A stretch of 61,114 bases of DNA, the filler included, from a candidate division TA06 bacterium SM23_40 (GTDB lineage: Bacteria; LJUI01; SM1-40): the NCBI GenBank assembly GCA_001303705.1. It is 4 parts of 4 records of this genome, joined end to end, with 100 filler letters (N's around TTAATTAATTAA, not from the genome) between each part and the next. Parts side by side here need not be neighbours in the genome. Positions count along the whole stretch, not along the records: positions 47,018 to 61,114 come from LJUI01000059.1; 3 more parts are not named here. One strand, written 5' to 3'. The notes beneath the pieces are model-generated. The model was not told the origin of the DNA, did not search any database, and was given only the letters and a program-made list of their open reading frames with translations. Below are positions 19,395 to 61,114 of the stretch, one piece after another. Position 1 is the first letter of the stretch. Every line of letters begins with the position of its first letter. The translations under genes were made by a program, and so were the position numbers.

Positions 19395-20036
19395 CTATTC
19401 TCCGCCCAGGTATGCCCGTTCGATCCCGAGTATGATGCGCAGACCCATCGCCATGACCCCCATGGCAGCTCCCATCATGATCCCGCGGAATCCGATCATA
19501 TTCGGCACATTCATGATCCACTCCGTCACCACCGGCAGCTGCAGGGCTGTGGGCAGTCCTCTCGTCAACAGGCTACCCAGCGGTACCCGTCCCAGCATTA
19601 CGATGACCGCTGCGAGCAGCAGGAGCGTGGCCTCCCAGTTGCGGACGCGAAAGGCGCGGTACGCCGCCGAGGCGATGAAGAACGCGAGAAGGGCGAACAT
19701 CGTCATATCGAGGTGGACTTTCAGGTGCCGGAACAGGTAGTTGAATGGTGTGCCCTCTCCCACCCCCCAGACCAGACCGGTGATCATCATGGCGAACATG
19801 CCGGCCAGGAGTACAATGCTGTACGGCCAGCCGGCAGTGCGGCGAGGGATCCTCTCAAAGAGATGGATGCGCAGGAGATTACCGATCCCGAGGACGATGG
19901 AGGCGGCGATAACGATGACGCTCCACTGGCGGAGCTCAGACGCGGCGTTGGCCACCAGCGGATGGGGCACGAAGAAGTCGACGAGCTGGACGAACCCGGC
20001 CACGAAGGTGATGATCAGAGGGATCTCTCTACGCAT
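19395..20036 (-). CDS. Cassette gene B3, multi-pass membrane protein
   Basis: MRREIPL..TMFALLAFFIASAAYRAFR..MLGRVP..RIILGIERAYLG; paralog of B1/B2. Confidence 0.88.
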   Translation of the reverse strand: MRREIPLIITFVAGFVQLVDFFVPHPLVANAASELRQWSVIVIAASIVLGIGNLLRIHLFERIPRRTAGWPYSIVLLAGMFAMMITGLVWGVGEGTPFNYLFRHLKVHLDMTMFALLAFFIASAAYRAFRVRNWEATLLLLAAVIVMLGRVPLGSLLTRGLPTALQLPVVTEWIMNVPNMIGFRGIMMGAAMGVMAMGLRIILGIERAYLGGE

Positions 20037-20054
20037 TATACTCGTTCATCCTCT

Positions 20055-20159
20055 CGCTTCACGCTTCACGCTTCACGCTTCACGCTTCACGCTTCACGCT
20101 TCACGCTTCACGCTTCACGCTTCACGCTTCACGCCTCACGCTTCACGCTTCACGCCTCA
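20055..20159. repeat. Heptamer tandem repeat (CGCTTCA)x15
   Basis: 15 copies; copies 12 and 15 are CGCCTCA. Lies between genes A3 and B3. Confidence 0.95.
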
Positions 20160-20288
20160 CGCGTTTCTGCACGCCGCCCGATTCTCTGTACTTCATCTGT
20201 TCGGCGCGCCGCCAGTCCCTTCGTGGCACAGACGCCCGCACCAGTCACCCAATAGAAGAAAAACCGGCGTGGCAGCCGGAACGCGACT

Positions 20289-30700: not shown

Positions 30701-32170
30701 TTAGCGCAGAAGAGCCATGCGCTTCGTGTCGGTGAACTCGCCTGTCTCGAGGCGGCAGAAGTAGATACCGCTCGCCACCTTCCGTCCTCGCTGGTCCCGT
30801 CCGTCCCACACAACGCTGTGGAAGCCGGCGGGAACCGTCTCCTGCGCCAGAGTGCGCACCAGAGCGCCCCGGATGTCATAGACCGCCACTTTCACCGGAG
30901 TCCCGGCGCTCAGCGAGTAGCAGATCGTCGTGGAGGAACCGAACGGGTTGGGACGGTTCTGCGCGAGATACTGTGCCACCGCGGGCAGCTCATCCTCACC
31001 TTCGGAAACGCCGACCATGCCATCGGCGTCGGTCTTGATCAGATAGACATCATCCTCGACATCGCCCGGGGGCCAGGTGTATCCGACGACGATGTATCCC
31101 CCATCGAGAGTCTGAGCGACCGAATATCCTCCATCCCACGCCAGGCCGGCGTACGCACGCGTCCACAGCGTATCGCCCGCTGAGTCGGTCCTAATCAGGT
31201 AGAGGTCCTCGATGCCCGTGGGGAAGGGCTCGCCGTATCCGGTGATAATGTATCCTCCGTCGTTTGTCTGTGCGACCGAATAGCCTCCATCTGCATACGG
31301 GCCGCCATACGTACGCGTCCAGATTGTATCGCCGACACCGTCGGTTTTAACCAGATAGACATCCCTATCGCCGGCTCCATACGACTCGGTCTCTCCGACG
31401 ATGATATATCCCCCATCGCTCGTCTGGGCGACCGAGAAGCCCCCCTCGTAGTTTGGGCCGCCATAGGTGCGCGTCCACATGGTATCGCCAAGGGAGTCAG
31501 TCTTGATCACATAGATGTCCCAGGACCCCGCGCCGAAGGTCGTCGTGCCCCCGGCCACGATGTATCCTTCATCGAGAGTTTGCGCGACCGACTCGCCAGA
31601 GTCGTAACTGGAACCGCCGTACGTGCGCGTCCAGACCGTATCGCCATTCGCGTCAACCTTGATCAGGACTACGTCGCTAAGTTCTGCGCCGTAGGATTCG
31701 GTGTACCCCGTGACGACGAATCCGCCATCGAGCGTCGGCGCGACCGACCTGCCCGTCTCCGTCTGCGGGCCGCCGTACGGGCGTGTCCACACCGTGTGGC
31801 CATCGGCATCCGTCCTGACCAGGTATATATCGGTCTGGCCCTCACCGAAAGACGTTGTGTTACCAGCGATGATATATCCCCCATCGAGCGTCAGGGCAAC
31901 CGACCTGCCTCCATCGGTCTGGGGGCCGCCAAAAGTCGTCGACCATGATGTGGACCCCCATGCATCAGTCTTGATCAGCCAGAGGTCCGACTGGCCGGCC
32001 CCGTAGGACCGAGTCGTTCCGGCGACGATATATCCCCCGTCGGGCGTCTGGGCGACCGACCGGCCCAGATCACTGGAGGCGCCACCATAGGTGCGCTCGA
32101 ACGTGATCTGAGCAGCGGCGGTCAACGGCACCAGCAGAGCGAGCACGAACGCCAAGGTTCTCATAGCCAT
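30701..32170 (-). CDS. Secreted beta-propeller repeat protein with a FlgD-like C-terminal domain
   Basis: Paralog of 14856..16886 lacking the two Ig modules; signal peptide ending LTAAAQ. Confidence 0.85.
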   Translation of the reverse strand: MAMRTLAFVLALLVPLTAAAQITFERTYGGASSDLGRSVAQTPDGGYIVAGTTRSYGAGQSDLWLIKTDAWGSTSWSTTFGGPQTDGGRSVALTLDGGYIIAGNTTSFGEGQTDIYLVRTDADGHTVWTRPYGGPQTETGRSVAPTLDGGFVVTGYTESYGAELSDVVLIKVDANGDTVWTRTYGGSSYDSGESVAQTLDEGYIVAGGTTTFGAGSWDIYVIKTDSLGDTMWTRTYGGPNYEGGFSVAQTSDGGYIIVGETESYGAGDRDVYLVKTDGVGDTIWTRTYGGPYADGGYSVAQTNDGGYIITGYGEPFPTGIEDLYLIRTDSAGDTLWTRAYAGLAWDGGYSVAQTLDGGYIVVGYTWPPGDVEDDVYLIKTDADGMVGVSEGEDELPAVAQYLAQNRPNPFGSSTTICYSLSAGTPVKVAVYDIRGALVRTLAQETVPAGFHSVVWDGRDQRGRKVASGIYFCRLETGEFTDTKRMALLR

Positions 32171-47017: not shown

Positions 47018-47199
47018 GGACGGTAGGAGTCCTCGGGCCTGACCAGTATACACTTCCGGCCAATACCACCGTTCAGCAACTGTTCATTCATGACGTGCCG
47101 CTGGCAGCGCCGTCCGGCTACTACGAGTACCGCACTAGAATCGGAGTGCCGCCCTCAACACTCTACGACGGGGATCAATTCACCTTCAGGGTGTTGTGA
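47018..47199 (+). CDS. 3' end of another beta-helix-family paralog, cut by the contig start
   Basis: Hand translation TVGVLGPDQYTLPANTTVQQLFIHDVP..YRTRIGVPPSTLYDGDQFTFRVL* matches the final domain of 55781..57310. Confidence 0.85.
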
Positions 47200-47313
47200 G
47201 GTGCCGTAGTGACTGCGTGATCGTCGTTTGGGAGCTGAACTGCCGGCCCTTCCAATTCGAGGGGCGGGCGTTCGCATTCGCTGAGAACAGGCACCGCGAT
47301 CGGAGTGTCGTTT

Positions 47314-47784
47314 TCACGGGAGATCTCTACGGAGGTACTCCTCATAGTCTTTGAGAATCGGGGTATATTCTTCGTCCATCAACGGGGAACTGATCATGAA
47401 ATCCGCCGTGGATCGATTGCAGGCGATTGGTATGTTGTACAGGACTGCGATTCGCAACAGTGCCTTCACATCGACATCGTGGGGATGCGGTTGCATCGGA
47501 TCCCAGAAGAAGATCACGAAGTCTATCTTTCCTTCGGTGATCAGGGAGCCCAGTTGCTGGTCGCCGCCCAGGGGCCCGGAGCGCAATTTCCGGATCGAGA
47601 TATCGTGAGAGATATTCATCTTTGCGAGCTTGTCCCGGATGGCCTTTTCGACCAAGTTCCCCGTAGTTCCCGTGCAGGTCAATCGGTGTTTGAGCAAGAC
47701 AGTCACATTCCATTCGATCCACTCGATCAGATCCCTCTTTCTGTTGTCATGTGCGACAAGCGCAATGTTCTTTCTGACTTTCAT
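47314..47784 (-). CDS. mgsA: Methylglyoxal synthase
   Basis: IALVAHD; TGTTG; SGPLGGDQQ; FFWDP..PHDVDVKALLR; ACNRSTADF. Confidence 0.96.
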   Translation of the reverse strand: MKVRKNIALVAHDNRKRDLIEWIEWNVTVLLKHRLTCTGTTGNLVEKAIRDKLAKMNISHDISIRKLRSGPLGGDQQLGSLITEGKIDFVIFFWDPMQPHPHDVDVKALLRIAVLYNIPIACNRSTADFMISSPLMDEEYTPILKDYEEYLRRDLP

Positions 47785-48056
47785 ATGCTCTTTTCTCCTC
47801 GTTGGGATTGACTCTTCTCCCTTAGCATAATCCAGAAAGGGTTTCCTCCGCTACGGTGCTCTGTCATGGTGCCTGCTGATCCCTATCGGGCTCAGGCCTC
47901 TCCCGCCCCGGGCACGACCCCGGTGAGATGCCCACGTGAAGAGCCTCCGTCAGTCCCGCCGCGAGGCATGAGAAACACCGCCATGGGGTCCCGTGGTGAA
48001 CGGGATCGGCAACGACGGTCATGGCGGCCTGTGCGATCGAGGGGGATATCCTTCGG

Positions 48057-48290
48057 CTAGTCGCCGTCCTTGAGGCCAATGATCTCGAAACCGCCTCGGG
48101 CACCTGGTTGTCCTGTCATCTCTCTGAATCTGTGCAGAGCTCCGCAGTGGCGACACTGGATGAGTTCTTCCTCGTCCACGTTCACGAATTCGGCGGTGGG
48201 TTTCGTGGGATCCTGCGCAAGAGGAGCCCCCGTCTCAATCGGCCAGGACTCAAACATGATCTCATTGCATCTACGACACCTCTCCTCCAT
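48057..48290 (-). CDS. Small Zn-ribbon protein
   Basis: CRRC and CRHC pairs; GGAGG RBS upstream of the ATG. Confidence 0.6.
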   Translation of the reverse strand: MEERCRRCNEIMFESWPIETGAPLAQDPTKPTAEFVNVDEEELIQCRHCGALHRFREMTGQPGARGGFEIIGLKDGD

Positions 48291-49179
48291 GGACTATTCC
48301 TCCCACGGTCAGTTCCATCTCCGAATGGCGAGTTCCCCGGCTTGACCATCTTTCCGAGCTCTACCGGAGGATCTCAGTCCGAAAGCTCCTTGATCTCACT
48401 CTCCTTCTAGGCTGTCTTCTCATTCTGCAAGCAATGGCCCGGGGCCACCCCTTGACGGGTGCCGAGAGCAGCCAACGGCGAGGCATCAGTGTAGGCCGAG
48501 CTTTTGCCGGCGTCAACAGGAAACGCCCGTCGGCTCGAAGGCGCTCCGCCTTGGTCGCTTGGCCCTTGGCAATCCTGATGTCGTGAGCTATGGTGCACGC
48601 TAATGCTAGGACTTATGGGGCCGGCGGTCTCGTTTGATCAAGACCTCACTGCCTGACTTGGTTTCGCCAATCTCTCGTGTGGGCTTCGGCACCAACAAGA
48701 CCTGACAACCTGTGCTCCGAGGGCTTCCCTACACCTACCGTCACCCTTCGGGGTGAATGAGAGAAATTGCTATCCCGGCAGTCTCTTCGGGGCTTTCTGT
48801 CTCCGCTCGGCGGGCCTTATGGCATCTCTGTCCGGTCTGGTGAACACCCAGTCGTGTGGGCCGAAGATTGTTTCGAGTTCGCGATCGTGCCGCCGCCGGT
48901 AGAGTAGGTGCATCGTCAATTCAAGATCGCCGGATGAGCAGCTCCCTGTGGTGCGCTCACGTATCGGTGGATTGGCGTATGTCATCGCGCGACGAGGGGG
49001 GGCCGACCCTGGACGCGGCTCGGGCCAACACGAACTCGAAATCATTCGCGTTATGGTGTGAGGCGTTCCGGATGCTCACATACGCTACGCAGAAGGTGGA
49101 GAAAGCGTAGTGCGTTCAGATTCTATGTGCAAGGGTACGAGCCGGAGTGCGACGCGAAGGGAATGGCGCGCGACGACGG

Positions 49180-49233
49180 ACATCGACGCTTCACGACGAG
49201 GACAGCTTCACGTTCACGGTTGTGGAGCCGTAG
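49180..49233 (+). pseudogene. Orphan C-terminal tail of the beta-helix family
   Basis: Hand translation TSTLHDEDSFTFTVVEP*; compare NLYDRDRFLFTVVEP* ending at 58922. Confidence 0.75.
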
Positions 49234-49259
49234 CCCAAGCCAAGCTCACGACATAGAAA

Positions 49260-49293
49260 GTCCGCTCTCCTAAGCGGAAGGGCGGGCGTTTTT
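49260..49293 (+). terminator. Candidate intrinsic terminator
   Basis: GTCCGCTCT...AGGGCGGGC stem (with G-U pairs) followed by GTTTTT. Confidence 0.6.
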
Positions 49294-49718
49294 CTGTATC
49301 TAGGTCGGCTTGAGGCGCCTCCTTGGGCGGACCAACGATGTGTGAAATCCCCGACACGGGGCCGCATCACAAAGACGGCGTGGAGCCCTTCAGGGACGAA
49401 GCCGGTGGCGTTGTACGCACCAAATAGCGGCCAGCGACAAGAACTGGGGTCCGATGAATCGCCCGGTGGGTGCCGACTTCATGGCCAAACTCCAGAAGCT
49501 CCGACAACCGCCAGAGGAGGGGGGTGAAGGCGCGGAAGAGGGCGGATCCGAGGCGGCAACCGAGCCGGAGTAGAAACGGGTCACGGACCCTCCTCAGATT
49601 TGCCCGTTTTTGCTCAAAATCGGCCCATACACGGTAGGTTGAGACGCTATCTTTTTTTGCCAATGGTATGAGATGGGCGAAAGAGTATCCGCCTTAGGAT
49701 CGCCCTGAGAGAGGGGAA

Positions 49719-50192
49719 ATGGAACGAGATCGCATCCGACAGAAGGTGCTTGAGCAGCAAAGCCAGCTCCTCGCCATGGGAGCTCAGGAGGCGGGGACGA
49801 TCCGGTTCTGGATCCGGCAGCAATACAGTCTGCCGCCGACGGATCTCCGCTACCTGACGCTGACCGAGGAGCAGATAACGCTTGAGTACTACGCCTACCT
49901 GGCCGCCAGCGGCGCACGGATCTGTAGTCGCTGCGGGACGCTCGGCACCGACCGGTTCTGCGTTCAGTGCGGGAACGAGCTGAACTACGGCATCACGAAG
50001 AAGTGCCCCAAAGAGACGTGCGGCGCGCGATTCGCGTCGGAGAACTGGGAGTACTGCCCGATCTGCGGGAGCGAGCTCGAGATGCACACCCGGTACGATC
50101 CGACCTATCCCGCCTGGGCAGACGAGGAAAGCATGGATCTGGGGATAGGGCAACCCAGCACCGAGGACGACAAGCACTGGGAAGACGTGTGA
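49719..50192 (+). CDS. Protein with a phage tail-assembly-chaperone-like N-terminus and a double Zn ribbon
   Basis: FWIRQQYSLPPTDLRYLTLTEEQI; four Cys pairs (CSRC, CVQC, CPKETC, CPIC); GAGGGG RBS. Confidence 0.65.
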   Translation: MERDRIRQKVLEQQSQLLAMGAQEAGTIRFWIRQQYSLPPTDLRYLTLTEEQITLEYYAYLAASGARICSRCGTLGTDRFCVQCGNELNYGITKKCPKETCGARFASENWEYCPICGSELEMHTRYDPTYPAWADEESMDLGIGQPSTEDDKHWEDV

Positions 50193-50374
50193 AAAAGTCT
50201 TGCCGTCAAGACAATTCTAGGGGCCTGAAATGCCGATTTCGCTGTGTCCCAGGTCTTGTGCGCATGCGGCATCACCTTTTTGGTAGCTGAGTGCTTCGCC
50301 GGGGCAACGGCCCCATCAGGCGGCAGGAGCTGAGGCGATGATGCGCCGGGTGATCGTCTCAGCTCCTTATGTTC

Positions 50375-50403
50375 TTGACACACTCGCCGAATAGGTGTAG
50401 ACT
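50375..50403 (+). promoter_or_regulatory. Sigma70 promoter, leader element 1a
   Basis: TTGACA, 17 bp, TAGACT. Confidence 0.8.
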
Positions 50404-50408
50404 CCCAA

Positions 50409-50561
50409 GGTAGGCGTTGAGTTCCCGAGATTTCTGCCGGCTTGGGACCGGCAGAGGACGCCCGGTGGCCTCGGGAGCGGTTTGGCACTACAACAGCTCA
50501 GGATACATCCATCGAGAGCGACACCGAGCGTCACGGGTGAGGGGTCGTTCTTTTCTTTTTT
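50409..50561 (+). ncRNA. Candidate structured leader RNA with terminator, copy a
   Basis: Conserved with 52682-52833; contains paired stems and ends in a hairpin plus U-tract. Confidence 0.6.
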
Positions 50562-50597
50562 GGCCATCGGTGGATCTCCGTCTCACGAAGGGGTGGA

Positions 50598-51530
50598 ATG
50601 GTGACGACTGGGAGAGGCATGTGGATCGGACCATTGCTCTTGCTCGTAGCGCTCTGCTCTTCTGCCATCCTCATCTTCTCCTGTGTGGGAACCGCCACAA
50701 GAGAAGAGTTCGATTTGGGCGGAACGGATGCCGAGTTCACGGCAGGCAAGGCAGAGAAGTGGCATGAGGAGATGCCTGAACTGTCCGAGGAGGCGATCGA
50801 CTTTCTCAGGGGGTTCTCGAACAGACTGCGTGCAGTCGGCCGACGTCCTGGATGTGGTGGGGCCACAAGCGATAACTTCCGATTTTCGGTGTTGTATGCC
50901 GATACCCACATCATAGTCCGCGACTGCGACGGGGATTCCGAGTGGTCTCATCGCACATTCCCGTTCTTTTGGACGAGCTTTTACGTAAGCGATGATGGGC
51001 AGATCGCAACCATATGTGGGACTGACGAGCTGGGAAGGACGTGCCGGCTAGAGATATACGATCCCGATGGATTGCGAGGTGCGTGGGAGAATGACTCACT
51101 GATTTCATGGGTCTCTCGACTCTTTCCGAGTGGCCACTACATAGCGATCATGGGTCAGTCCAAGCCATATGTGACGCTTGTCGACAATCGCGGGGAAGTC
51201 CAATGGGTCAAACGGATTCCCAGCCTTGACGGACACTGGGCTGCCGTGAGTTCTGCCTCACCCGATGATGACTTTGTGGCTTTCGCTGTCCCTCTAATCG
51301 ATTATCCGAGAACGCAGGAAGTTCAGTTGGTGATTATCGGTGTCGACGGCAAGGTTAGGTGCGATACCACACTTTCTTACGGCCGGTTCCCCGCCATCCG
51401 AGTGGATTCAGAATTCGTGGCGGTCGGTGTAGCAAATGAGTGGTTGGTGTACCGAACTGAGTCGGGGAAGCTAATAGGCACTCTGTCTAACGAAAAGTTC
51501 AAGGCGTTGGCTCAGTGGTGGGCACCGTGA
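50598..51530 (+). CDS. Hypothetical exported protein, possibly a lipoprotein with a beta-rich fold
   Basis: 310-aa ORF with a hydrophobic N-terminus ending IFSC; visibly more AT-rich than its neighbours. Confidence 0.65.
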   Translation: MVTTGRGMWIGPLLLLVALCSSAILIFSCVGTATREEFDLGGTDAEFTAGKAEKWHEEMPELSEEAIDFLRGFSNRLRAVGRRPGCGGATSDNFRFSVLYADTHIIVRDCDGDSEWSHRTFPFFWTSFYVSDDGQIATICGTDELGRTCRLEIYDPDGLRGAWENDSLISWVSRLFPSGHYIAIMGQSKPYVTLVDNRGEVQWVKRIPSLDGHWAAVSSASPDDDFVAFAVPLIDYPRTQEVQLVIIGVDGKVRCDTTLSYGRFPAIRVDSEFVAVGVANEWLVYRTESGKLIGTLSNEKFKALAQWWAP

Positions 51531-51546
51531 TCTAATCAGGGGAGCG

Positions 51547-51588
51547 TGGGACAGCAGCAGCTTCGAGTTCAAGGTGGTGGAGCCGTAG
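51547..51588 (+). pseudogene. Second orphan C-terminal tail of the beta-helix family
   Basis: Hand translation WDSSSFEFKVVEP*. Confidence 0.6.
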
Positions 51589-51715
51589 GGCGGGTACAGG
51601 TCTCCTTTTCAGGGTTTGGTGTGCGATATCAGGCGCCTGGCCGGACAGGGAAAGAAAGGGCGCGCTCTCGTGGCCCATTGGGCCCATCACGGCACCAAGA
51701 GGAGGAGAGATTCAG

Positions 51716-52255
51716 ATGAGGGTTCTGGTGCTTCTAACGCTGAGCACTGCCCTGGTGTTGGGTTGCTCGGAGGAGGAGGAAGCTGTCTCAACCAGCCCCG
51801 ATGAGGAGCCAAACCTCAGGTGCGTTAGAGTCCACTGGACCGACGATGGCTATATTCCGCTATGGGACCGCAAACAAGGACCCGATGCGATGTATACTCT
51901 CTGCGTCGGCGATACGATCGATTCACTCTACGTGATAGTCCTTCAAAACTGGTGGTTTGGATGCACTTTCCCACTTTCGCAACCGTTTACCTTCTCGAGT
52001 CTTCTTCTTGAAGATGAAGAGAGAGTAGCCCTCCAATCAGACACGTATAGGGGATTGTACGTACCCGATGATACTTGGTTGTATGGAGGACAGCTTCCCT
52101 TTTGCCTTTCTGCCATTTCGACCCCCAACAACGGCATCATAGAGGCAGCAGCACAGGGAGACACAGTGGTGGCGACGTTCTATCCGCTCGCCGTCTTTCC
52201 CTTTCCGACCAAGTTCGGTATAGGCGTGAGCGACACGATGCGAGTGCTTCCATAG
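51716..52255 (+). CDS. Hypothetical lipoprotein
   Basis: MRVLVLLTLSTALVLGC lipobox; GGAGG RBS. Confidence 0.75.
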   Translation: MRVLVLLTLSTALVLGCSEEEEAVSTSPDEEPNLRCVRVHWTDDGYIPLWDRKQGPDAMYTLCVGDTIDSLYVIVLQNWWFGCTFPLSQPFTFSSLLLEDEERVALQSDTYRGLYVPDDTWLYGGQLPFCLSAISTPNNGIIEAAAQGDTVVATFYPLAVFPFPTKFGIGVSDTMRVLP

Positions 52256-52397
52256 GTATAGGTGCACTGCTGCTCGCGGCGGCGGACGCCTTTCTCTTCT
52301 TCGCGGTAGTGAAGCCGCAAGTTGGACGAGGCAGAAGGTACGGAACGCCCGCTCTTCCGGGTCGAAGGGCGGGCATCGTATGTGGTTATGTGGGGAC

Positions 52398-52455
52398 GAG
52401 CGCCGCAGTTGTACGCAGTCGGTAACCTCGAAAAATACGTGTACCCCTGGGGACA
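52398..52455. repeat. 58-bp dispersed direct repeat, copy 1
   Basis: Core GTAACCTCGAAAAATACG(T/C)GTACC(C/T)CTGGGGACA is shared with 55135-55192. Confidence 0.8.
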
Positions 52456-52647
52456 CCAGCCTAGGGTTTGACGGCTCTAACCCTAGGCTATTATATTGCA
52501 GATCTTGTGATCAGCTAGTGGGCCGGTAGGCCTCGGGCCTTCGCCACCTCGGTCGGGAGGCTGAGCGTCCAGCTACCGGACAACGGCCCTAGCTCGAGCT
52601 GAGGCGATCAATGCGCCGGGTAGATCGTCTCAGCTCCGTTTTCCTTC

Positions 52648-52676
52648 TTGACACCCTTCCTAAATGGGTGTAAACT
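52648..52676 (+). promoter_or_regulatory. Sigma70 promoter, leader element 1b
   Basis: TTGACA, 17 bp, TAAACT. Confidence 0.8.
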
Positions 52677-52681
52677 CTCAA

Positions 52682-52833
52682 GGTAGGCGTTGAGTTCCCG
52701 AGATTTCTGCTGGCCGAGGGCTGGCAGAGGGCGCCCGGTGGCCCCGGGAGCATTTTGGCACCGTAACAGCTCAGGGTAGGTTATTCGAGAGCGACACCGA
52801 GCGTCACGGGTGAGGGGTCGTTTTTTTGTTTTT
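52682..52833 (+). ncRNA. Candidate structured leader RNA with terminator, copy b
   Basis: Homologous to 50409-50561, with pairing-preserving changes. Confidence 0.6.
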
Positions 52834-52866
52834 CGCGCTAGATCAACAGGAGAGAGAGTGCGGCGA

Positions 52867-54831
52867 ATGAGGCGGACTTGGCCAATGACAGTCGCGTGTT
52901 TTGGCGCTATCGGTATGGCATACGTGGCTCCTGCGACAGTGATACATGTCCCGCAGGAGTACCCGACCATCCAGGCGGGAGTCGATGCCGCGGTAAACGG
53001 GGATACGGTGCTCGCGGCTGACGGCACCTACGCAGGCGATGGTAATCGGGATATCGATTTCAACGGTAAGGCGATTGTGGTCATGTCCGAGAACGGACCG
53101 GAGGTCACGATCATCGATTGTGAGGGTGACTCCCTCGATCCGCATCGGGGGTTCTTCTTCGGCAGTGGAGAGGGTTCAGCGTCCATCCTGCAGGGGTTCA
53201 CGATCAAGAACGGATGGGAGAGTGGCGGCGGGATCCTGTGCTTTCACACTTCTCCCACCATCGTGGGCAACACGCTCATGGCGAATGTCACCGACTTCCG
53301 CGGCGGTGGGATCCTATGCCACAACGGTTCTCCCGCTATCGTAGGGAATGTGTTGACCGGCAATTCAGCGATGGCCCTTGCCGGGCGTGGCGGTGGCATC
53401 CATTGCAGTTCGGGCGCCTCACCCACCATCGTGGGCAATACGATCCTGGCGAATACGGCTGTGTACGGCGGAGGGATTGGTGTCCTCAATGCCTCTGCGA
53501 CCCTTCTCGGGAATACGATACTCGAGAACACGGCGGAGCTCGAGGGCGGCGGGATATACTGCGATGGCTCGCTCATGTCGGTCACCAACTGCATCCTCCG
53601 GGAAGATAGTGCCGGCGTAGGTGGTGAGATCTCGTTGGCGGACAGGAGTTCTCTTGCGGTCCGTTATTCGGACCTTGAGGGCGGAGCAGGCGCGATCTTC
53701 ATGCCGCCTGGCTGTATCTTGCACTGGGGTGTGGGCAACATCGACGAGGATCCGATGTTTGTGCTGGCCGAACAGGGAGACTACCGTATTATCTGGGACT
53801 CTCCCTGTGTGGACGCGGGTCATCCAGACTCTCTTGACCCGGATAGCACGCGGAGCGATATGGGAGCCCACTACTTCGATCAGAACGACTACATGACCAT
53901 CTACGTGACGCCTATGAGTACCGAGGTCACACCGGGCGGCACACTTGAGGTCACCTATACGGCGATGAATCGGTGGGGGTTCCCTGTGTCATACTGGGCG
54001 CTGGCCGAGGCGGTTCTCCCGAATACGCATACCGTGACTGTGATGGGCCCCGATCGCTACACCCTGGCGCCCCACGTCTGGAGGCAGCAGCTAATTGCTC
54101 AGGACGTGCCGCTCACTGCGGAACCCGGGCTGTACCTGTATCGGGCGAGGATCGGTGTACCGCCCAATACGCTCTACGACGAGGACAGCTTCTCGTTCGA
54201 GATCGCTCCTGTCTGCGACTATCTGATCTGGGAAGCTGATCCGACGCCAATCAGCGGCCAGCCGATCATGGATGCGCTATCTGCCCTTGGCAGGAGTTCC
54301 GAGTTCGTGGAGGGTCCTCTGGGCAACTACGACCTGTTCGCTTACCGCGGACTGTTCATCTGCCTGGGTGTGTACTCGAACAACGCCATGATTATGGAAG
54401 GCTCCCCAGAGGCGGCCCAGATCGAGGAGTACATCGCCGCAGGCGGTAGCGTCTACCTGGAAGGGGGTGATGTCTGGTACTACGACCCCCTGTTCATGGG
54501 CGGTCATGACTTCGGCCCGAGCTTCGGGATCATCCCGATCGATGACGGAGTGGGCCCTTCGATCGGGATCGTCTCGGGCGTGGAGAATTCGCTCATGCCC
54601 GGACTCGCTGGCTTGACCTCCCCTTACTTCGGCGAGAACGCTTGGTTCGACTGGCTCGGCGCAATACCACCGGCCGAGGTCATCTTCACGATGCTGGATA
54701 TGCCTCCCGACATTGGCGTAGCCAATCCGACTCCCTCAGGTGGCCACACCGTCGGGACATCATTCGAGCTCGGTGGAACCGATTTTGTGGGAGAGGTCGT
54801 GGCCGAGTTCGTCGCCTTCTTCGAGGACTGA
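52867..54831 (+). CDS. Secreted right-handed beta-helix (pectin-lyase fold) protein with an Ig-like domain and an extra alpha/beta C-terminal domain
   Basis: HVPQEYPTIQAG..GDTVL..DGTY; GGGI.C..SP.I.GN repeats; SPCVDAGHP..DPD.TRSDMGA. Confidence 0.85.
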   Translation: MRRTWPMTVACFGAIGMAYVAPATVIHVPQEYPTIQAGVDAAVNGDTVLAADGTYAGDGNRDIDFNGKAIVVMSENGPEVTIIDCEGDSLDPHRGFFFGSGEGSASILQGFTIKNGWESGGGILCFHTSPTIVGNTLMANVTDFRGGGILCHNGSPAIVGNVLTGNSAMALAGRGGGIHCSSGASPTIVGNTILANTAVYGGGIGVLNASATLLGNTILENTAELEGGGIYCDGSLMSVTNCILREDSAGVGGEISLADRSSLAVRYSDLEGGAGAIFMPPGCILHWGVGNIDEDPMFVLAEQGDYRIIWDSPCVDAGHPDSLDPDSTRSDMGAHYFDQNDYMTIYVTPMSTEVTPGGTLEVTYTAMNRWGFPVSYWALAEAVLPNTHTVTVMGPDRYTLAPHVWRQQLIAQDVPLTAEPGLYLYRARIGVPPNTLYDEDSFSFEIAPVCDYLIWEADPTPISGQPIMDALSALGRSSEFVEGPLGNYDLFAYRGLFICLGVYSNNAMIMEGSPEAAQIEEYIAAGGSVYLEGGDVWYYDPLFMGGHDFGPSFGIIPIDDGVGPSIGIVSGVENSLMPGLAGLTSPYFGENAWFDWLGAIPPAEVIFTMLDMPPDIGVANPTPSGGHTVGTSFELGGTDFVGEVVAEFVAFFED

Positions 54832-55134
54832 CAACATTACGGAGACCACTCAGATAGAATGAGCGCCTCACAAGGAGGTGTTCACTTTGTTGCCGGCGGG
54901 GCTCCCGCTGGGAACTATGTTCCTATTGATGTGAGTCGAGAGCTCTCGCTTCATTGCCGATGATCGAGCCCATGAGGCGAAGGACCTGCATTGGAGACAG
55001 CGTGGCGCTCGTACGCCACAAAAAGTCGTGAAACTCCCGGCTCCCTTTAGGGAGCTGACCTGCACATCAGTCGGCGACCGTGCCCACTCTTAGTGATTGA
55101 GGAGAACGTATTTCTTCGCCCCTCAGGTCGGCGA

Positions 55135-55192
55135 GAGCACCGCGCTTGTGCGCACTCTGTAACCTCGAAAAATACGCGTACCTCTGGGGACA
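55135..55192. repeat. 58-bp dispersed direct repeat, copy 2
   Basis: Matches 52398-52455. Confidence 0.8.
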
Positions 55193-55400
55193 TGTTGAAG
55201 CACCTAAGTACCGCCAGATGGACAGATCAGGCAGTTATCTCCCACCTTGCAGGGGGTCCTGACCGACTCGAACTCTCTTCTAACAGACTGTTTTGCACCT
55301 CCAGGCCGTGCTGGGTGCCCGCCCCGCTTCATGATCCGCTACGAGCGCGTTCGTTGTCTGCTCCGCACGGGTACCTCTCGCACCTAACCCGCCAAATCTC

Positions 55401-55673
55401 TTGACAGGATGGGGCTTATGTGATAGGCTCTCGGTTGATGAGAAATGCAGGCTGATCCGGCACATGCCCGGCCACCGGCAAGGGATGTGCGGCGCGGGTT
55501 GGGGGATGTAGCCATGTACCGAGGGTGCCTCCTTGATGGTGGCGAAGGACCTGGGTGACGGGGGCAGGCCGCGAATGGCGGTTGGACCGCTCCACGCGGG
55601 TCAATCCGATATCGCAAAGGAGAACGGCTGCGAGCCTCGAGCTGCGTCGTGCGAGCTTTGAGGAAGTAGCCGT
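55401..55673 (+). promoter_or_regulatory. Promoter plus conserved long leader, element 2a
   Basis: TTGACA, 17 bp, TAGGCT with TG extension; sequence blocks shared with 57346-57619. Confidence 0.65.
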
Positions 55674-55780
55674 GTGTGTTTGGCCTTCGCTCCCGGCGGT
55701 ATCAGGGGGGAGACGGGAGATCGAAGCGGCGTGAGGACACAACTTGTCGCACAGAAGAACATCGACAGGAGGATGGTGTC

Positions 55781-57310
55781 ATGAACAAGCGGATGCCTCT
55801 AGTATGCGTGACCCTGGTTCTCGGGCTGAGCATAAGCGTATCAGCGACGGTTCTCCACGTGCCCGGCCAGTACCCGACCATCCAGGCGGGGATTGACGCC
55901 GCCGGCGAAGGTGATACGGTCCTCGTGGCTGACGGCACGTACACCGGCGACGGGAACCGGGATCTCGACTTCGGCGGCGTGAATATGGTGGTGATGTCGG
56001 AGAACGGGCCCGAGGTGACGATCATCGACTGCGAGGGGAGCTCTGTGGACCCGCATCGGGCGTTCTTCTTCCACGGCGGAGAGGACCAGAGCTCTGTCGT
56101 GCAGGGATTCGAGATCACGAATGGGTATGCCGTTGGACTGTACCCATTCAGCGACGGTGGCGGGATTCTCTGCATCAGCTCCTCCCCGAATATCATGTGG
56201 AACACTATCACGGATAATGTGGCCGTGTACGCCGGTGCGATTTCGTGCGATTACTCGTCCGCGCGAATCGCCAACAACATATTCGTGGGGAATGCTGCCT
56301 TTGAGAATGCCGGTGCGATCGGCTGCGACTACTCAGATGTGACCATCGCGGACAACACGCTCGTATTGAACAGTGCAGGCTTCGGCGCCGGCGCCATAGG
56401 ATTCGGCAACTCCTCCAATTTGACGATCACGGGGAACATGATCCTGCGGAATACAGCGGGCTGGGGTGGGGGCGGCATCGGCTGCGCGTACTCCGCCGGA
56501 CTCATCATGGAAAATACCTTCGCCGAGAACTCAGCAGATAGTGTCGGGGGCGGCATCGGTGTGGGTTGGCAGAGCTCCCTGGCGATGGTGGAGAACACGA
56601 TGGCCGGGAATGTGGCCCCGTTCGGCGGTGCGGTCTGGTGCGACTCCGCCTGCACTGTGACGATGATCAACTCCATCCTCTGGGGGGACAGTGCGGCGCT
56701 GGGTCGGGAGATCTGCATGGAGAACAGATATGGAGCGCCCAGTTCGGCGACGGTCTCGTACTCGGATGTCGATGGCGGCGAGGTAGAGGTGTATGTTGCC
56801 CCGGGATGCGTGCTCAACTGGGGCGATGGCAACATCGACGCCTTTCCGGAGTTTGTGCTGCGGTCCAAGCAGGACTACCGTCTGCTGTGGGGTTCCCCCT
56901 GCATCGATGCCGGGCATCCTGACACGCTCGACCCGGATAATACGCGGTGTGATATGGGCGCCTACTACTTTGATCAGACGGAGTACATGACCCTGTACCT
57001 GTCGCCGGATGGGGCAGTGGTCGTGCCCGGAGGCCTGCTCGGCGTGACGTACACGGTCATCAATCGGTGGGCACAGCCGGAGACGTTCTGGGTGCAGACG
57101 GAGGTGCAGTTGCCGGGCGGGGGCACGCTGAACGTCATCGGTCCTGATCGATACACGTTGCCTCCCGACTTCACGGTACAGCGTTATCTGACTCACAACG
57201 TGCCGATGGGGGCACCTCTGGGCCTGTATGCCTATCGGTCGAGGATCGGAGTGCCGCCCTTTATGATCTACGACGAGTATCACTTCCCATTCTGGGTGGT
57301 GGCGCCGTAG
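55781..57310 (+). CDS. Secreted right-handed beta-helix repeat protein
   Basis: AGGAGG RBS, signal peptide, same family motifs. Confidence 0.87.
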   Translation: MNKRMPLVCVTLVLGLSISVSATVLHVPGQYPTIQAGIDAAGEGDTVLVADGTYTGDGNRDLDFGGVNMVVMSENGPEVTIIDCEGSSVDPHRAFFFHGGEDQSSVVQGFEITNGYAVGLYPFSDGGGILCISSSPNIMWNTITDNVAVYAGAISCDYSSARIANNIFVGNAAFENAGAIGCDYSDVTIADNTLVLNSAGFGAGAIGFGNSSNLTITGNMILRNTAGWGGGGIGCAYSAGLIMENTFAENSADSVGGGIGVGWQSSLAMVENTMAGNVAPFGGAVWCDSACTVTMINSILWGDSAALGREICMENRYGAPSSATVSYSDVDGGEVEVYVAPGCVLNWGDGNIDAFPEFVLRSKQDYRLLWGSPCIDAGHPDTLDPDNTRCDMGAYYFDQTEYMTLYLSPDGAVVVPGGLLGVTYTVINRWAQPETFWVQTEVQLPGGGTLNVIGPDRYTLPPDFTVQRYLTHNVPMGAPLGLYAYRSRIGVPPFMIYDEYHFPFWVVAP

Positions 57311-57345
57311 GTGAGGATCGGCAGCATCAGCGGCCGGCATTGTCC

Positions 57346-57619
57346 TTGACAGAAGTGGGAGTGTGTGATAGGCTCTCCACTGATAGGAAGTAGAGGCTGA
57401 TCCGACGCAGGCCCGGCGACGAGGGATGTGCGGATCTGGGTCTCGTGCCAACTCCTGAAATGACCCGGGAAGGTGGGCCCAGATGGTGGGGCATGTCGGT
57501 TGGGGCAGGGCTGGCCCGGCTGAAGTGGGCCGGGCGGTCGCCTCAGATCAGATAATGCGGTGAAGGCGAACGGCTACAGACCTGGAGTCCTGTGGTGAGG
57601 GCTCTGGGGAAGTAGCCGT
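57346..57619 (+). promoter_or_regulatory. Promoter plus conserved long leader, element 2b
   Basis: TTGACA, 17 bp, TAGGCT; ACGGCTAC..GTAGCCGT stem. Confidence 0.65.
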
Positions 57620-57731
57620 ATGCATGTGGGGTATGCGGGTGGACACCGGAAAGGGGGGGAAAGGCGAAGCATTCTGGAGGCGTGCAGACATAAGCACTCA
57701 CAGAGGAATCTATCAAAGGGAGGGCGAGGCG

Positions 57732-58922
57732 ATGAGACTGTTGACGACGTTGTGGTGTGCAGCCCTGGTTCTCGGGCTGTGCGGGAGTATCTCGGCCACG
57801 GTCATACATGTCCCGGACGACTATCCGACCATCCAGTGGGGTATTGATGCAGCGGTCGGCGGTGATACCGTGCTGGTGGCCGATGGCACATACACCGGTT
57901 CGCTGAACCGAGACCTCGATTTCGGCGGCAAGGCGATCGTCGTGATGTCGGAGAACGGGCCGCACGTGACCATCATCGACTGTGAGGGGAGCATCTCAGA
58001 ACCGCATCGCGGGTTCTACTTCCACAGCGGGGAGGGCCCGGCATCCGTGGTGCGGGGGTTCATAATCCAGGGTGGATGGGCCGAGTACGGCGGCGGGATC
58101 AATTGCGACAGTTCTTCTCCCACGATCCAGGGCAACACGATCAGGGGGAATACAGCCGGCTACGACGGCGGTGGGATCTATTGCGGAGAGTGTTCTTCGG
58201 TCATCGTCGATAACACGATCACAGAGAATGCGGCCAACACCGGTGGGGGGATCGCCTGCTACTACAACTCTTCTCCGACGGTCATGAACACCATCCTCTG
58301 GGCAGACGATGCCGGCACAGGCCATGAAATCTACCTGGGTGAAGCCAGTTCGATGGCTGTGTCCTACTCGGATATATCGTCTCGATGGTTGGCAGTCTTC
58401 GTTGCCCCGGGTTGCACCCTGGAGTGGGGAGAGGGTAACATTGAGACGAATCCGAAGTTTGTGCTGGCCAATCTGCAGGACTACCGACTGCTGTGGGGGT
58501 CGCCCTGCATCGACGTCGGGCATCCGGACTACCTCGACCCGGACGGCACGCGGAGCGACATCGGGGCCCACTTCTTCGATCAATCGAAGACCATCGTCGC
58601 GTATGCTACGCCCCAGACTCGCACTCTGTCCCCGGGTGATAACTGTGCAGTACTCTATGCAATGATCAACATCCACCCTGAGCCAGTAGAGGTGAGAGGG
58701 GGCGTTGAGCTTACCCTGCCCAACGGCGAGCCGTGGTCGGGGAACCCGCTAGAGGGACCTGGCTACACCGTTTTCCCACCTGAGTTCACCTGGCAGATTG
58801 TTCGGGAATATACGGTGCCCGAGACGTGGCCGCTCGGAGTCTCCGTCTTCACCTGGAGAGTGGGAATGCCCGGGAACCTCTACGACAGAGATCGCTTCCT
58901 GTTCACGGTGGTGGAGCCATAG
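57732..58922 (+). CDS. Secreted right-handed beta-helix repeat protein, short form
   Basis: Signal peptide; only about 3 GGGI.C repeats. Confidence 0.87.
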   Translation: MRLLTTLWCAALVLGLCGSISATVIHVPDDYPTIQWGIDAAVGGDTVLVADGTYTGSLNRDLDFGGKAIVVMSENGPHVTIIDCEGSISEPHRGFYFHSGEGPASVVRGFIIQGGWAEYGGGINCDSSSPTIQGNTIRGNTAGYDGGGIYCGECSSVIVDNTITENAANTGGGIACYYNSSPTVMNTILWADDAGTGHEIYLGEASSMAVSYSDISSRWLAVFVAPGCTLEWGEGNIETNPKFVLANLQDYRLLWGSPCIDVGHPDYLDPDGTRSDIGAHFFDQSKTIVAYATPQTRTLSPGDNCAVLYAMINIHPEPVEVRGGVELTLPNGEPWSGNPLEGPGYTVFPPEFTWQIVREYTVPETWPLGVSVFTWRVGMPGNLYDRDRFLFTVVEP

Positions 58923-59248
58923 GGCATGTAGGCAGCCTCCAAGGGTGGGGGGTTCTGGAGCGGGCGCGTCAGTATACTCGCCGGTCCCTATGCTCATCCG
59001 ATAGATGGTGCTGACAGATCAGATACTGACGAGCACTGGGCGCCTCTCTGTGAGGCGCTCGTGTGCAGGTGGTTTGGCGCAGGTCGGTGTGTCAGGGGAG
59101 CTGGTGTGTCAGGGGAGGCGGTGCACGGCACCGACCTCAGCCAAGAGGCCCGGTCTGGCCGCGGCCATTGCACCTGTGACGAGGCGCGGTTGTGCAGGTG
59201 AGAGCGTCGATTTTGCGCACAGAAGAACGCCGAAAGGAGGGTGGCGCC

Positions 59249-61012
59249 ATGGGCAAGCGGACAATTCTGCTGAGTACAACTCTGGTTCTTGGATTGGGCG
59301 TAGGCGTCTCGGCGACAGTTCTTCACGTGCCCAGTGAGTATCCCACAATCCAGGCGGGGATCGATGTAGCGGTCGACGGGGATACCGTACTGGTCGCCGA
59401 CGGCACGTACACCGGTGACGGGAACCGCGACCTCGACTTGGGCGGCAAGGCCATTGTCGTCATGTCCGAGAACGGGCCGCAGGTCACGACCATCGTGTGC
59501 GAGGGAAGCGTGCAGGACCCCCATCGCGGGTTCCACTTCCACAGCGGCGAGGACTCCGCCTCAGTAGTCAAGGGGTTTACGATCAGGGACGGGTGCGCGC
59601 ACGGTGTCTGGCCGGACTACAACGGTGGTGGTATCTTGTGCAATGTCGCTTCACCCACCATCGAAGGCAACAGGATTACGGGGAATGTAGGAGGCGTGGG
59701 CGGTGGGATTTCCTGCCTGTCGTCCTCGGCGATCATCGTTGACAACGCGATCACGGAGAACTCGGGCTGCGGGATCACATGCTTCCTCAGTTCTCCGATC
59801 ATCGAAGGCAACACGATCGCGGCTAATACGGGCGGTGGCGGCGCCGGGATCCGATGTGAGAACAATTCCTCGCCTACAATCGAGGGCAATACGATCACGG
59901 AAAACGAGGCCGGCAAGGGCGGCGGGATCGGCTGCTGGGAAGACTCCTCGCCGACGATCGCACGCAACGTTATCGCTGGGAACACGACTTCCTCCGGTGG
60001 CGGCGCCGGAATCTATCTCCATGAGAACTGTTCTCCCGGCATCCAGGAGAATACGATCACCGGGAACGTGGCCATGGAGGACGAGAGCGTCGGCGGCGGC
60101 ATCTGCGGCTGGGTCGATTCTTCCCCGACGATCGAGGGCAACACAATCACGGGAAACGCGGCAGGCATGGGCGGCGGGATGGGTTTCGTCGACTTCGGGT
60201 CGCCGCTCATCAAGGGCAACTCAATAGCGGCGAACACGGCAAGCCTGGCTGGCGGCGGGATCTATTGCGGGTGGGACACCTCTCCGACCGTCACCGGGAA
60301 TACATTCACGGGAAATGCGTCCGTCTATGGTGGAGGGATGGCGTGCTTCGATAACTCGTACCCCACGGTTATCAATACTATTCTGTGGGGCGACAGTGCT
60401 GGGATCGGCGGGGAGATATTTGCGGATGACACGAGTTGGGTGGTGGTCACGTACACCGATGTCGAGGGCGGCTGGCCGGGGGAGGGCAACATAGATACCG
60501 ATCCGTGGTTCGTCCAGCAGAGCTGGGGCGACTACCGTCTGCTCTGGCCATCTGCGTGCATCGACTCCGGGCATCCTGATTCTCTCGACCCTGATGGCAC
60601 GCGGAGTGATATGGGGGCGCACTTCCTGGATCAGTCGAAACCTCTCGTCATCTATGTGTCCCCGCAGGGACGGACGATAGCTCGCGGACAGATAGGCAGT
60701 CTGCTGTACACGATCATCAACTGCCACGAGGAACCCGAACCCTGTTGGTGGATCGCAAGGCTCATACGGCCCGGCGGCCAGCCCTGGCCAGGGAACCCGC
60801 TGGAGGGGCCCCTCTATCTCGTCGTGAAGCAGAACGCTTACTATCAGGCGTACCGGTCGTATACCGTACCTCTCCAATGCCCGCTCGGAACGTGGAGTTT
60901 TTCGACCAAACTGGGTCTGCCGGGGAACCTGTACGATGAGGACGGGTTCCAGTTCACGGTGGTGGAGTCGCGGGGAACTCTATCCGGCGGAGCCGGTGTT
61001 CGGGGATTGTAG
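59249..61012 (+). CDS. Secreted right-handed beta-helix repeat protein, long form
   Basis: AAGGAGG RBS; about 10 GGGI.C..SSPTI.GNTI..N repeats. Confidence 0.87.
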   Translation: MGKRTILLSTTLVLGLGVGVSATVLHVPSEYPTIQAGIDVAVDGDTVLVADGTYTGDGNRDLDLGGKAIVVMSENGPQVTTIVCEGSVQDPHRGFHFHSGEDSASVVKGFTIRDGCAHGVWPDYNGGGILCNVASPTIEGNRITGNVGGVGGGISCLSSSAIIVDNAITENSGCGITCFLSSPIIEGNTIAANTGGGGAGIRCENNSSPTIEGNTITENEAGKGGGIGCWEDSSPTIARNVIAGNTTSSGGGAGIYLHENCSPGIQENTITGNVAMEDESVGGGICGWVDSSPTIEGNTITGNAAGMGGGMGFVDFGSPLIKGNSIAANTASLAGGGIYCGWDTSPTVTGNTFTGNASVYGGGMACFDNSYPTVINTILWGDSAGIGGEIFADDTSWVVVTYTDVEGGWPGEGNIDTDPWFVQQSWGDYRLLWPSACIDSGHPDSLDPDGTRSDMGAHFLDQSKPLVIYVSPQGRTIARGQIGSLLYTIINCHEEPEPCWWIARLIRPGGQPWPGNPLEGPLYLVVKQNAYYQAYRSYTVPLQCPLGTWSFSTKLGLPGNLYDEDGFQFTVVESRGTLSGGAGVRGL

Positions 61013-61114
61013 GTGAGGGGGGTCGCTGCGGGCAGCCCCGCATCCGAACTCCCCGGGTCCGGCCCCGGTACCCACATTGATCTTGGCCGGAATACATCGA
61101 ATCTAACGATATAG

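Follow-up and report, generated by a model that had tools for sequence, protein, structure and literature searches.

A repeated promoter-leader-terminator cassette with a candidate attenuator RNA in front of exported-protein genes of a candidate division TA06 bacterium

The genome of the candidate division TA06 bacterium SM23_40 (GenBank assembly GCA_001303705.1) contains copies of an intergenic element in which a promoter, a structured leader RNA of ~150 nucleotides (nt) and a predicted intrinsic terminator are joined in front of unrelated genes for putative exported proteins. Two of them, designated copy A (50326-50562) and copy B (52596-52835), lie in the stretch of DNA analysed here (hereafter the window), which comprises 61,114 nt, filler included, from four records of the assembly joined end to end, and whose positions 47,018 to 61,114 derive from LJUI01000059.1. 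The anatomy of the element, its copies, the pattern of its conservation and an alternative pairing within its RNA were established by computation on copies A and B, together with two further variants, C and D, that occur on metagenome contigs. We propose that the element is a lineage-specific, self-contained, multi-copy cassette, the RNA part of which is a cis-acting transcription attenuator, and we give this proposal about an even chance of being right.

Anatomy and conservation of the cassette

The initial annotation had pointed to two homologous stretches, and both are present: BLAST aligns copies A and B at 84.5% identity over 238 nt, and a repeat search reports them as a two-copy family (D14; 189 nt at 85%). 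In the alignment, the similarity sets in ~25-30 nt 5′ of an inverted repeat and ends directly 3′ of a U-tract. The repeated unit is ~265 nt long and consists, from 5′ to 3′, of a hairpin with a T-rich tail, a promoter, the ~150-nt RNA and the intrinsic terminator (Table 1). A search of the 61-kb window with a covariance model (R1, built from A and B) and with filters off revealed no further diverged copies besides A and B; the next-best match (11.4 bits) was the palindromic hairpin P3 of the element on the opposite strand.

The upstream hairpin is kept in all four variants (A-D). In copy A, a T-rich run (50366-50374) lies behind it, and the single mismatch between its arms is a G·T on the plus strand. 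It is likely that this hairpin serves as an insulating terminator and forms part of the repeated unit. The promoter annotated in each copy as TTGACA-17-TA(G/A)ACT is confirmed, with 10 of the 12 consensus positions matched in both; these are the top promoter-like sites within 15 kb, and the composite promoter pattern was observed twice in the window against 0.00 expected. From the usual promoter spacing, transcription of copy A would start at ~50410.

Folds of the single sequences and of the alignment agree on a three-way junction, in which P2 (9 base pairs, bp) closes P3 (9-12 bp) and P4 (3 bp); outside this junction, the folds contain a weak and irregular helix (P1), and 3′ of it the terminator. 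The latter is predicted in all four copies as a 9-bp stem with a U-tract (-15.4 to -18.5 kcal/mol), and in copy A it folds with -18.0 kcal/mol on the plus strand versus -8.4 kcal/mol on the minus strand. The shared string behind the promoter, the GTTCCCG/CGGGAGC pairing (which is P2), the inner hairpin (P3) and the stem given as GAGCGAC..GTCGTT with a U-tract (GAGAGCGAC..GTCGTTCTT) were all recovered as annotated. The folded 5′ domain of copy B scores 192.4 bits against R1.

In the four-sequence alignment, 98.6% of 144 stem cells pair; six one-sided changes retain pairing and two cells break it. The inner hairpin had been described as changing in sequence while keeping its pairing. The pairing is indeed kept, but by C-to-U changes that yield G·U wobbles and not by two-sided changes. 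The suggested pseudoknots (TTGAG with CTCAG, GGTG with CACY) are possible, and support for them extends to a five-column GAGUU/AGCUC helix in all four copies and no further; some contigs from public sequencing runs alter the CAC of the proposed stretch. The plus strand folds 5-21 kcal/mol better than the minus strand in all four copies, a difference whose weight is limited by the fact that fold programs permit G·U by design. Since the imperfections of the inverted repeats are G·U on the plus strand, RNA helices are favoured over DNA palindromes, which is supportive but not decisive.

Changes are distributed unevenly in the alignment of the four distinct copies. No column varies in the -35 hexamer (0/6), in the first 23 nt of the RNA (0/23) or in the terminator 5′ arm (0/9); variable columns number 1/6 in the -10 hexamer, 2/18 in the P3 stems, 4/22 in the junction, P4 and P2 3′ strand, and 5/19 in the terminator 3′ arm with the U-tract. 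The corresponding counts are 8/17 in the promoter spacer, 5/7 in the P3 loop, 17/36 in the linker and 8/21 in the terminator loop. When pooled, the spacer, loops and linker vary in 38/81 columns versus 12/103 in the other parts (Fisher p = 1e-7), and in the classes fixed in advance the spacer plus terminator loop vary in 16/38 columns versus 6/40 for the hexamers plus terminator arms (p = 0.011). The earlier remark that the spacer diverges more than the RNA is likewise correct, as A and B are identical at 11/17 positions in the spacer and at 132/154 in the RNA body. This pattern of change looks like selection on the promoter, the RNA and the terminator. It is hard to reconcile with gene conversion, which would have made the loops and spacers uniform too.

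Alternative pairing in the leader RNA

All helices of at least five columns that can form in the four copies were listed. Segment 2 of the RNA, comprising the P3/P4 junction, P4 and the P2 3′ strand, is complementary to segment 3, which comprises the terminator 5′ arm and the 5′ half of the terminator loop; this half of the loop is invariant, and the other half is variable or deleted. The predicted 2:3 duplex has an energy of -27.6 kcal/mol in copy A, -21.0 in B, -25.8 in C and -24.4 in D, and shuffled versions of segment 3 reached these values in 0, 1, 0 and 0 of 1000 trials, respectively. In a second test the entire 5′ domain was shuffled and the best duplex formed anywhere with segment 3 was taken: the best duplexes of the real domains (-27.6, -24.5, -25.8 and -25.1 kcal/mol for A, B, C and D) were reached in 4, 6, 7 and 3 of 500 shuffles, respectively, the one in copy B involving the linker, not segment 2. 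For comparison, the energies are -12.1 to -16.6 kcal/mol for P2 and -13.3 to -16.4 kcal/mol for the terminator, and 1.4-1.5% of genomic 27-nt windows reach the observed duplex value. Because the four copies are homologous, these statistics in effect count as a single test, with p of about 0.01.

In a nested fold, neither P2 nor the terminator can coexist with the 2:3 helix, and in transcripts cut just before the terminator 3′ arm the two folds are only 0.2-3.1 kcal/mol apart. The exclusive pairing yields the classical layout, with a 1:2 sensor fold, a 2:3 antiterminator and a 3:4 terminator.

From this layout we infer transcription, termination and switching, and with them an effector, as follows. 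The upstream hairpin and its T-run would stop read-in from the preceding gene, and the strong sigma-70-type promoter would begin the ~150-nt leader, whose first ~75 nt would fold as the three-way junction in which P2 closes P3 and P4. An intrinsic terminator would follow ~35 nt further on, 17-58 nt ahead of the start of an exported-protein gene. Segment 2 could pair either with segment 1, to form P2, or with segment 3. If P2 is held, the terminator (3:4) would form and a short RNA would be released; if 2:3 forms instead, RNA polymerase would continue into the gene. By the order of synthesis, P2 would form first and the terminator would then halt most transcripts, such that read-through would need 2:3 in its place. 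Two kinds of effector may be envisaged: a ligand or protein on the three-way junction that stabilises P2 and keeps the genes off, or a factor or RNA that binds the invariant first 23 nt, frees segment 2 and turns the genes on. Either would co-regulate a set of secreted or surface proteins that includes beta-helix, FG-GAP, BNR-like and uncharacterised members. It is tempting to speculate that the folded domain acts as an aptamer and thus represents a new class of riboswitch, or that a new RNA-binding regulator docks onto it, and that it switches this exported beta-helix/FG-GAP/BNR-type set by read-through, although we consider this rather doubtful. A riboswitch in the strict, metabolite-binding sense is a guess.

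Table 1. Positions of the cassette parts and of the adjoining genes, counted along the window.
Feature	Position	Strand	Description
Copy A upstream hairpin	50325-50367	+	arms 50325-50339/50353-50367, 13-nt loop; 15-nt arms, 93% complementary
Copy A promoter	50375-50403	+	TTGACA-17-TAGACT, sigma-70-type
Copy A invariant 5′ RNA segment	50409-50431	+	holds segment 1 = P2 5′ strand 50421-50429
Copy A hairpin P3	50432-50456	+	stem 50432-50440/50448-50456, loop 50441-50447
Copy A segment 2	50455-50478	+	P3/P4 junction, P4 50460-50462/50467-50469, P2 3′ strand 50470-50478
Copy A variable linker	50479-50513	+	17/36 columns vary; holds TGGCAC-N5-CAGCT, sigma-54-promoter-like
Copy A segment 3	50508-50534	+	terminator 5′ arm and invariant 5′ loop half; partner of segment 2, predicted antiterminator
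Copy A intrinsic terminator	50514-50561	+	predicted; stem 50514-50522/50544-50552, U-tract to 50561
Gene behind copy A	50598-51530	+	310 amino acids, no Pfam family; alternative start 50619
Copy B upstream hairpin	52596-52636	+	arms 52596-52609/52623-52636, 13-nt loop; 14-nt arms, 93% complementary; T-rich run up to 52647
Copy B promoter	52648-52676	+	TTGACA-17-TAAACT
Copy B folded 5′ domain	52679-52751	+	P2 52694-52702/52743-52751, P3 52705-52713/52721-52729, P4 52733-52735/52740-52742
Copy B segment 2	52728-52751	+	
Copy B linker	52752-52786	+	
Copy B segment 3	52781-52807	+	
Copy B intrinsic terminator	52787-52834	+	predicted; stem 52787-52795/52817-52825, U-tract to 52834
Gene behind copy B	52867-54831	+	right-handed beta-helix protein, Beta_helix (5.4e-10) and NosD; alternative GTG start 52858

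Distribution and gene context

Public collections were searched by exact words of the element, and the candidates were scored with R1. Among metagenome contigs, 17 loci were retrieved, 7 of which have true copies. Three of these (L012, L014 and L024) are 99.3-100% identical to the window, represent its own locus and are not independent; three (L009, L011 and L015) carry variant C, with 158.7 bits each, and one (L022) carries variant D, with 136.9 bits. Variant C ends 36 nt 5′ of a gene for a 546-amino-acid FG-GAP repeat protein with a signal peptide, and variant D ~17-26 nt 5′ of a gene for a signal-peptide protein with BNR-like repeats (a weak BNR_2 match). Two further candidates, L025 and L016, were rejected as chance matches, being weak and located in apparent coding sequence. 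Three patterns searched in viral contigs gave one chance match, on the same contig as L025, and then none and none. The element is so far known, as far as these searches reach, from one narrow uncultured lineage.

The contig with variant D stems from a related organism and represents the ortholog of the copy A locus, as its positions 113-910 align to 49578-50558 of the window at 75-81%. Both a zinc-ribbon gene, which shows a ~190-nt gap there, and the cassette are kept at the same locus; the similarity then stops at the U-tract, and the proteins encoded behind it are unrelated, the one in L022 being BNR-like. This comparison suggests that genes turn over directly behind the cassette.

Contigs of four public DNA runs were also aligned to the region at 80% likeness. 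Their number is far higher over the element than to either side of it; at 50558-50562, at least three additional downstream continuations set in, of which two have GGAG-like ribosome-binding sites within 30 nt, and one upstream continuation begins exactly at the -35 hexamer. Since depth is not copy number, we take these contigs as no more than an indication that the family has over four members. Eleven DNA runs from ten studies contain the region, in whole or in part, and are labelled as marine sediment, estuary and seawater metagenome.

In each of the four different downstream contexts, a signal-peptide gene follows in the same orientation and starts 17-58 nt behind the end of the element, which bears out the annotated placement before exported-protein genes. 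The genes behind copies A and B are unrelated, as had been stated: the 310-amino-acid protein behind A belongs to no Pfam family, and that behind B matches Beta_helix and NosD. Judged by eye from the translations, the former has a signal-peptide or lipobox-like N-terminus and the latter a signal-peptide-like one. The terminator had been placed ~35 nt before the start codon; the actual distance from the U-tract depends on the start chosen and amounts to ~37-58 nt for A and 24-33 nt for B. A promoter scan found no promoter-like site between the U-tract and the start codon. As a gap of 17-58 nt leaves no room for a promoter, the downstream genes would have to be transcribed from the cassette promoter through the terminator.

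Behind the 310-amino-acid gene of copy A lies a lipoprotein-like open reading frame (ORF; 51716-52255, plus strand). Between the two, 13 nt behind the stop codon of the 310-amino-acid gene and out of frame with it, a 42-nt stretch (51543-51584) matches the final codons of the FG-GAP genes in L009 and L011 at 93-97% identity. Many public-run contigs accumulate at this point (bin 51496-51584: 43.6 versus 5.03 in X1). By its similarity, the stretch resembles a remnant of the 3′ end of a gene that has been replaced and that carried a multi-copy C-terminal motif. On the speculative reading given above for the folded domain, sensor, promoter and insulator would form one portable unit, and new surface-protein genes could join the regulon by recombining behind a copy; the different gene at the L022 locus and the relic at 51543-51584 give a hint, from sequence comparison, that genes have recombined in behind the cassette.

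Other features were observed in the neighbourhood. A sub-threshold match to the Acido-Lenti-1 RNA motif (RF01687; 52460-52506, plus strand) lies ~90 nt 5′ of the copy B hairpin; it scores 24.9 bits (E = 0.0073) where the gathering score is 37, and a promoter-like site, TTGACG-18-TATATT, overlaps it. A 58-nt repeat (52398-52455 and 55135-55192, 86% identical) holds a GTACCCCTGGGGAC hairpin that was scored as terminator-like on the minus strand (52456-52441). A second homologous pair of a promoter and a long leader (55400-55492 and 57345-57433; 75% over 93 nt; TTGACA-17-TAGGCT) precedes tandem beta-helix paralogs starting at 55676 and 57624; unlike the main cassette, this pair is sufficiently explained by plain tandem gene duplication. 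The ~1.9 kb from the neighbour of ftsZ to the zinc-ribbon gene (47811-49719) contain no ORF of at least 150 amino acids on either strand and have no Rfam match. Elsewhere in the window, family D1 forms long arrays of 156-nt units (15751-16830 and 31029-32108, ~14.5 kb apart), and family D8 is a 14-nt tandem repeat array (20024-20176).

Known systems and alternative explanations

The initial annotation had recognised no riboswitch class in the element, and this agrees with the Rfam comparison. No Rfam 15 family matches in the whole window at gathering thresholds, and at E up to 10 nothing matches on the element within 50250-52900; the best Rfam match to the element alone is ctRNA_pGA1 (14.7 bits versus a gathering score of 45) and that to variant C alone is P26 (11.2 bits versus 36). 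ARAGORN detected no tRNA or tmRNA. In the sole literature check of novelty, a 14-letter string of the element was absent from the literature searched. By Rfam 15 and this one string check, the element appears to belong to no described family.

Two explanations were considered and rejected. Leader-peptide attenuation is unlikely, because the only shared ORF starts with TTG at position 12, has differing ends (in A it is still open where the RNA stops, whereas its length is 29 codons in B, 24 in C and 22 in D), and shows mostly non-synonymous differences; it has no good ribosome-binding site behind the inferred start. A mobile repeat like a miniature inverted-repeat transposable element or a Correia element was rejected for want of terminal inverted repeats, the only inverted repeats being internal ones (the upstream hairpin and P3).

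Leaders that control a terminator by an antiterminator include transcription-terminating riboswitches and the classical 1:2/2:3/3:4 attenuators of the trp, PyrR and T-box types. The cassette resembles them in its position in the 5′ untranslated region, in the folded sensor domain followed by an intrinsic terminator, in the middle segment that can pair with either neighbour and, presumably, in the control of read-through into the gene. Unlike them, it has no Rfam match and no conserved leader peptide, and its leader travels with its own promoter and insulating hairpin as a ~265-nt repeat in front of unrelated genes. Cyclic di-GMP (c-di-GMP) riboswitches are found before adhesin and secreted-protein genes and are comparable in that leader RNAs occur at several loci of one genome with surface or secreted proteins as targets; however, the Rfam models of those classes have no match to the element, even at E up to 10, and the fold differs.

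Specialised NusG paralogs provide another point of comparison. The UpxY proteins of Bacteroides act on leaders with ops-like pause sites and pause hairpins, and each operon begins with the gene for its NusG paralog (PMC11685472); LoaP of Bacillus velezensis is another specialised NusG paralog serving leaders (PMC12691694). The cassette is similar in that a conserved sequence stands early in a long leader, ahead of terminators that have to be overcome, in its surface-related targets, and in the occurrence of several loci with related leaders per genome. On the other hand, it differs from the UpxY systems, since the first genes here are beta-helix, FG-GAP, BNR-like or of no family, with no NusG/KOW match among them. 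The invariant 5′ segment may resemble ops.

Several observations weigh against the proposal of an attenuator. Because P2 would form first, read-through requires an effector that has to be postulated. The annotated role as a transcription-attenuating RNA is borne out as far as the leader position, the terminator and the computed, exclusive antiterminator pairing are concerned, but changes on both sides of a pair number 0 of 36; shuffle controls were flat, as four near-identical sequences give no power, and the absence of covariation reflects too little divergence among them. The folding z-scores of the whole RNA are unremarkable (-1.69 in A and -0.66 in B). P1 is weak, and some public-run contigs, in which the 5′ strand of P1 is not seen, change its 3′ strand. 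In the orthologous pair A-D, parts of the element are 69-87% identical and the adjoining intergenic DNA 80%, which makes the element not clearly the better conserved of the two. The homology stops sharply at the U-tract, and recombinational spread of a cassette would look alike. No homolog was found outside the one lineage: among species genomes searched by an exact 18-mer, 8 stretches were retrieved, none of which fitted R1 (0/8), all being chance matches. R1 likewise gave no match in 151 genomes of one phylum reached via a chance locus; the FtsZ of the window is at most 63% identical across 61 genomes of that phylum, which is thus probably not that of the window, such that this blank shows nothing.

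The orthologous pair and the sharp borders, which fall at the same points in all copies, also suit a promoter and 5′-leader repeat that senses nothing, has been spread and kept uniform by recombination or gene conversion, and bears a terminator that constitutively damps expression and an alternative pairing with no regulatory role. The different gene behind the element at the related organism's orthologous locus and the relic gene end behind the 310-amino-acid gene, both of which point to gene turnover behind the cassette, are likewise expected of such a repeat. Dispersed repeats that carry promoters are known, such as the Correia/CREE elements, and these, like REP/BIME, are short, sharply bordered intergenic repeats from which neighbouring genes can obtain promoters and hairpins. 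In contrast, the cassette is much larger and internally differentiated, has neither terminal inverted repeats nor, by eye, target duplications, and shows a pattern of change like that of selection on promoter, stems and terminator; gene conversion would have left the diverged spacer, loops and linker as uniform as the stems, the 5′ segment and the terminator arms. Furthermore, a terminator right before a coding region is costly unless regulated, and the 2:3 complementarity is above chance. A non-sensing repeat is, in our view, a possibility of lesser but appreciable probability.

The initial annotation had offered a small RNA (sRNA) as an alternative. On this reading, each copy would be an sRNA gene of its own with an invariant 5′ end acting in trans on mRNAs, like the sRNA families of the envelope stress response, and its proximity to a gene would be incidental or a by-product of read-through. 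Each copy does form a full transcription unit, with promoter, ~150 nt, terminator and an insulating hairpin upstream, and the first 23 nt of the RNA are the same throughout several copies of ~85% identity. There are known sRNA families with multiple copies and conserved seeds; siblings of the Qrr, OmrA/B and LhrC types likewise exist in several copies that are 80-90% identical, that each have a promoter and a terminator, and whose 5′ part is single-stranded and invariant. Unlike in those families, every copy of the cassette seen adjoins the start of a co-oriented gene, with so short a distance from the U-tract in all four contexts that a separate promoter for that gene finds no space, and the strong pairing of segment 2 with the terminator 5′ arm, an antiterminator pairing, has no role in a plain sRNA. 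The want of space for a separate promoter weakens the sRNA reading, and we regard it as unlikely. Finally, a control region acting at the DNA level, in which TGGCAC-N5-CAGCT in the linker is a sigma-54 promoter and the inverted repeats (P3 and the upstream hairpin) are enhancer-binding-protein sites, is highly improbable: GG and GC stand at -24/-12 spacing in all four copies while 3 nt between the blocks vary, but the site departs from the pattern at 2 positions, the window shows no enrichment of sites that match this well (14 found versus 18.8 expected), one public-contig variant apparently lacks the GG, a transcript begun there would still meet the terminator a few bases on, the inverted repeats are imperfect as DNA and pair as plus-strand RNA via G·U with the better folding of that strand, and the sigma-70 hexamers are near-invariant while their spacer varies.

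What the cassette means for the organism depends on which of these explanations holds. If it is only a promoter-carrying repeat, it would be an ordinary one, and would still help to annotate start sites and operons in these genomes. The cassette also offers compact and testable material, in the form of an RNA of 150 nt with a clear 1-2-3-4 layout. If it is a real attenuator, it would delimit a regulon made up of secreted and surface proteins, in an uncultured lineage from sediment that has no known regulation, and would add a leader RNA without an Rfam relative. A regulatory RNA, a promoter and an insulator would then be spreading as one module, which may be a simple route by which unrelated genes are brought under one signal.

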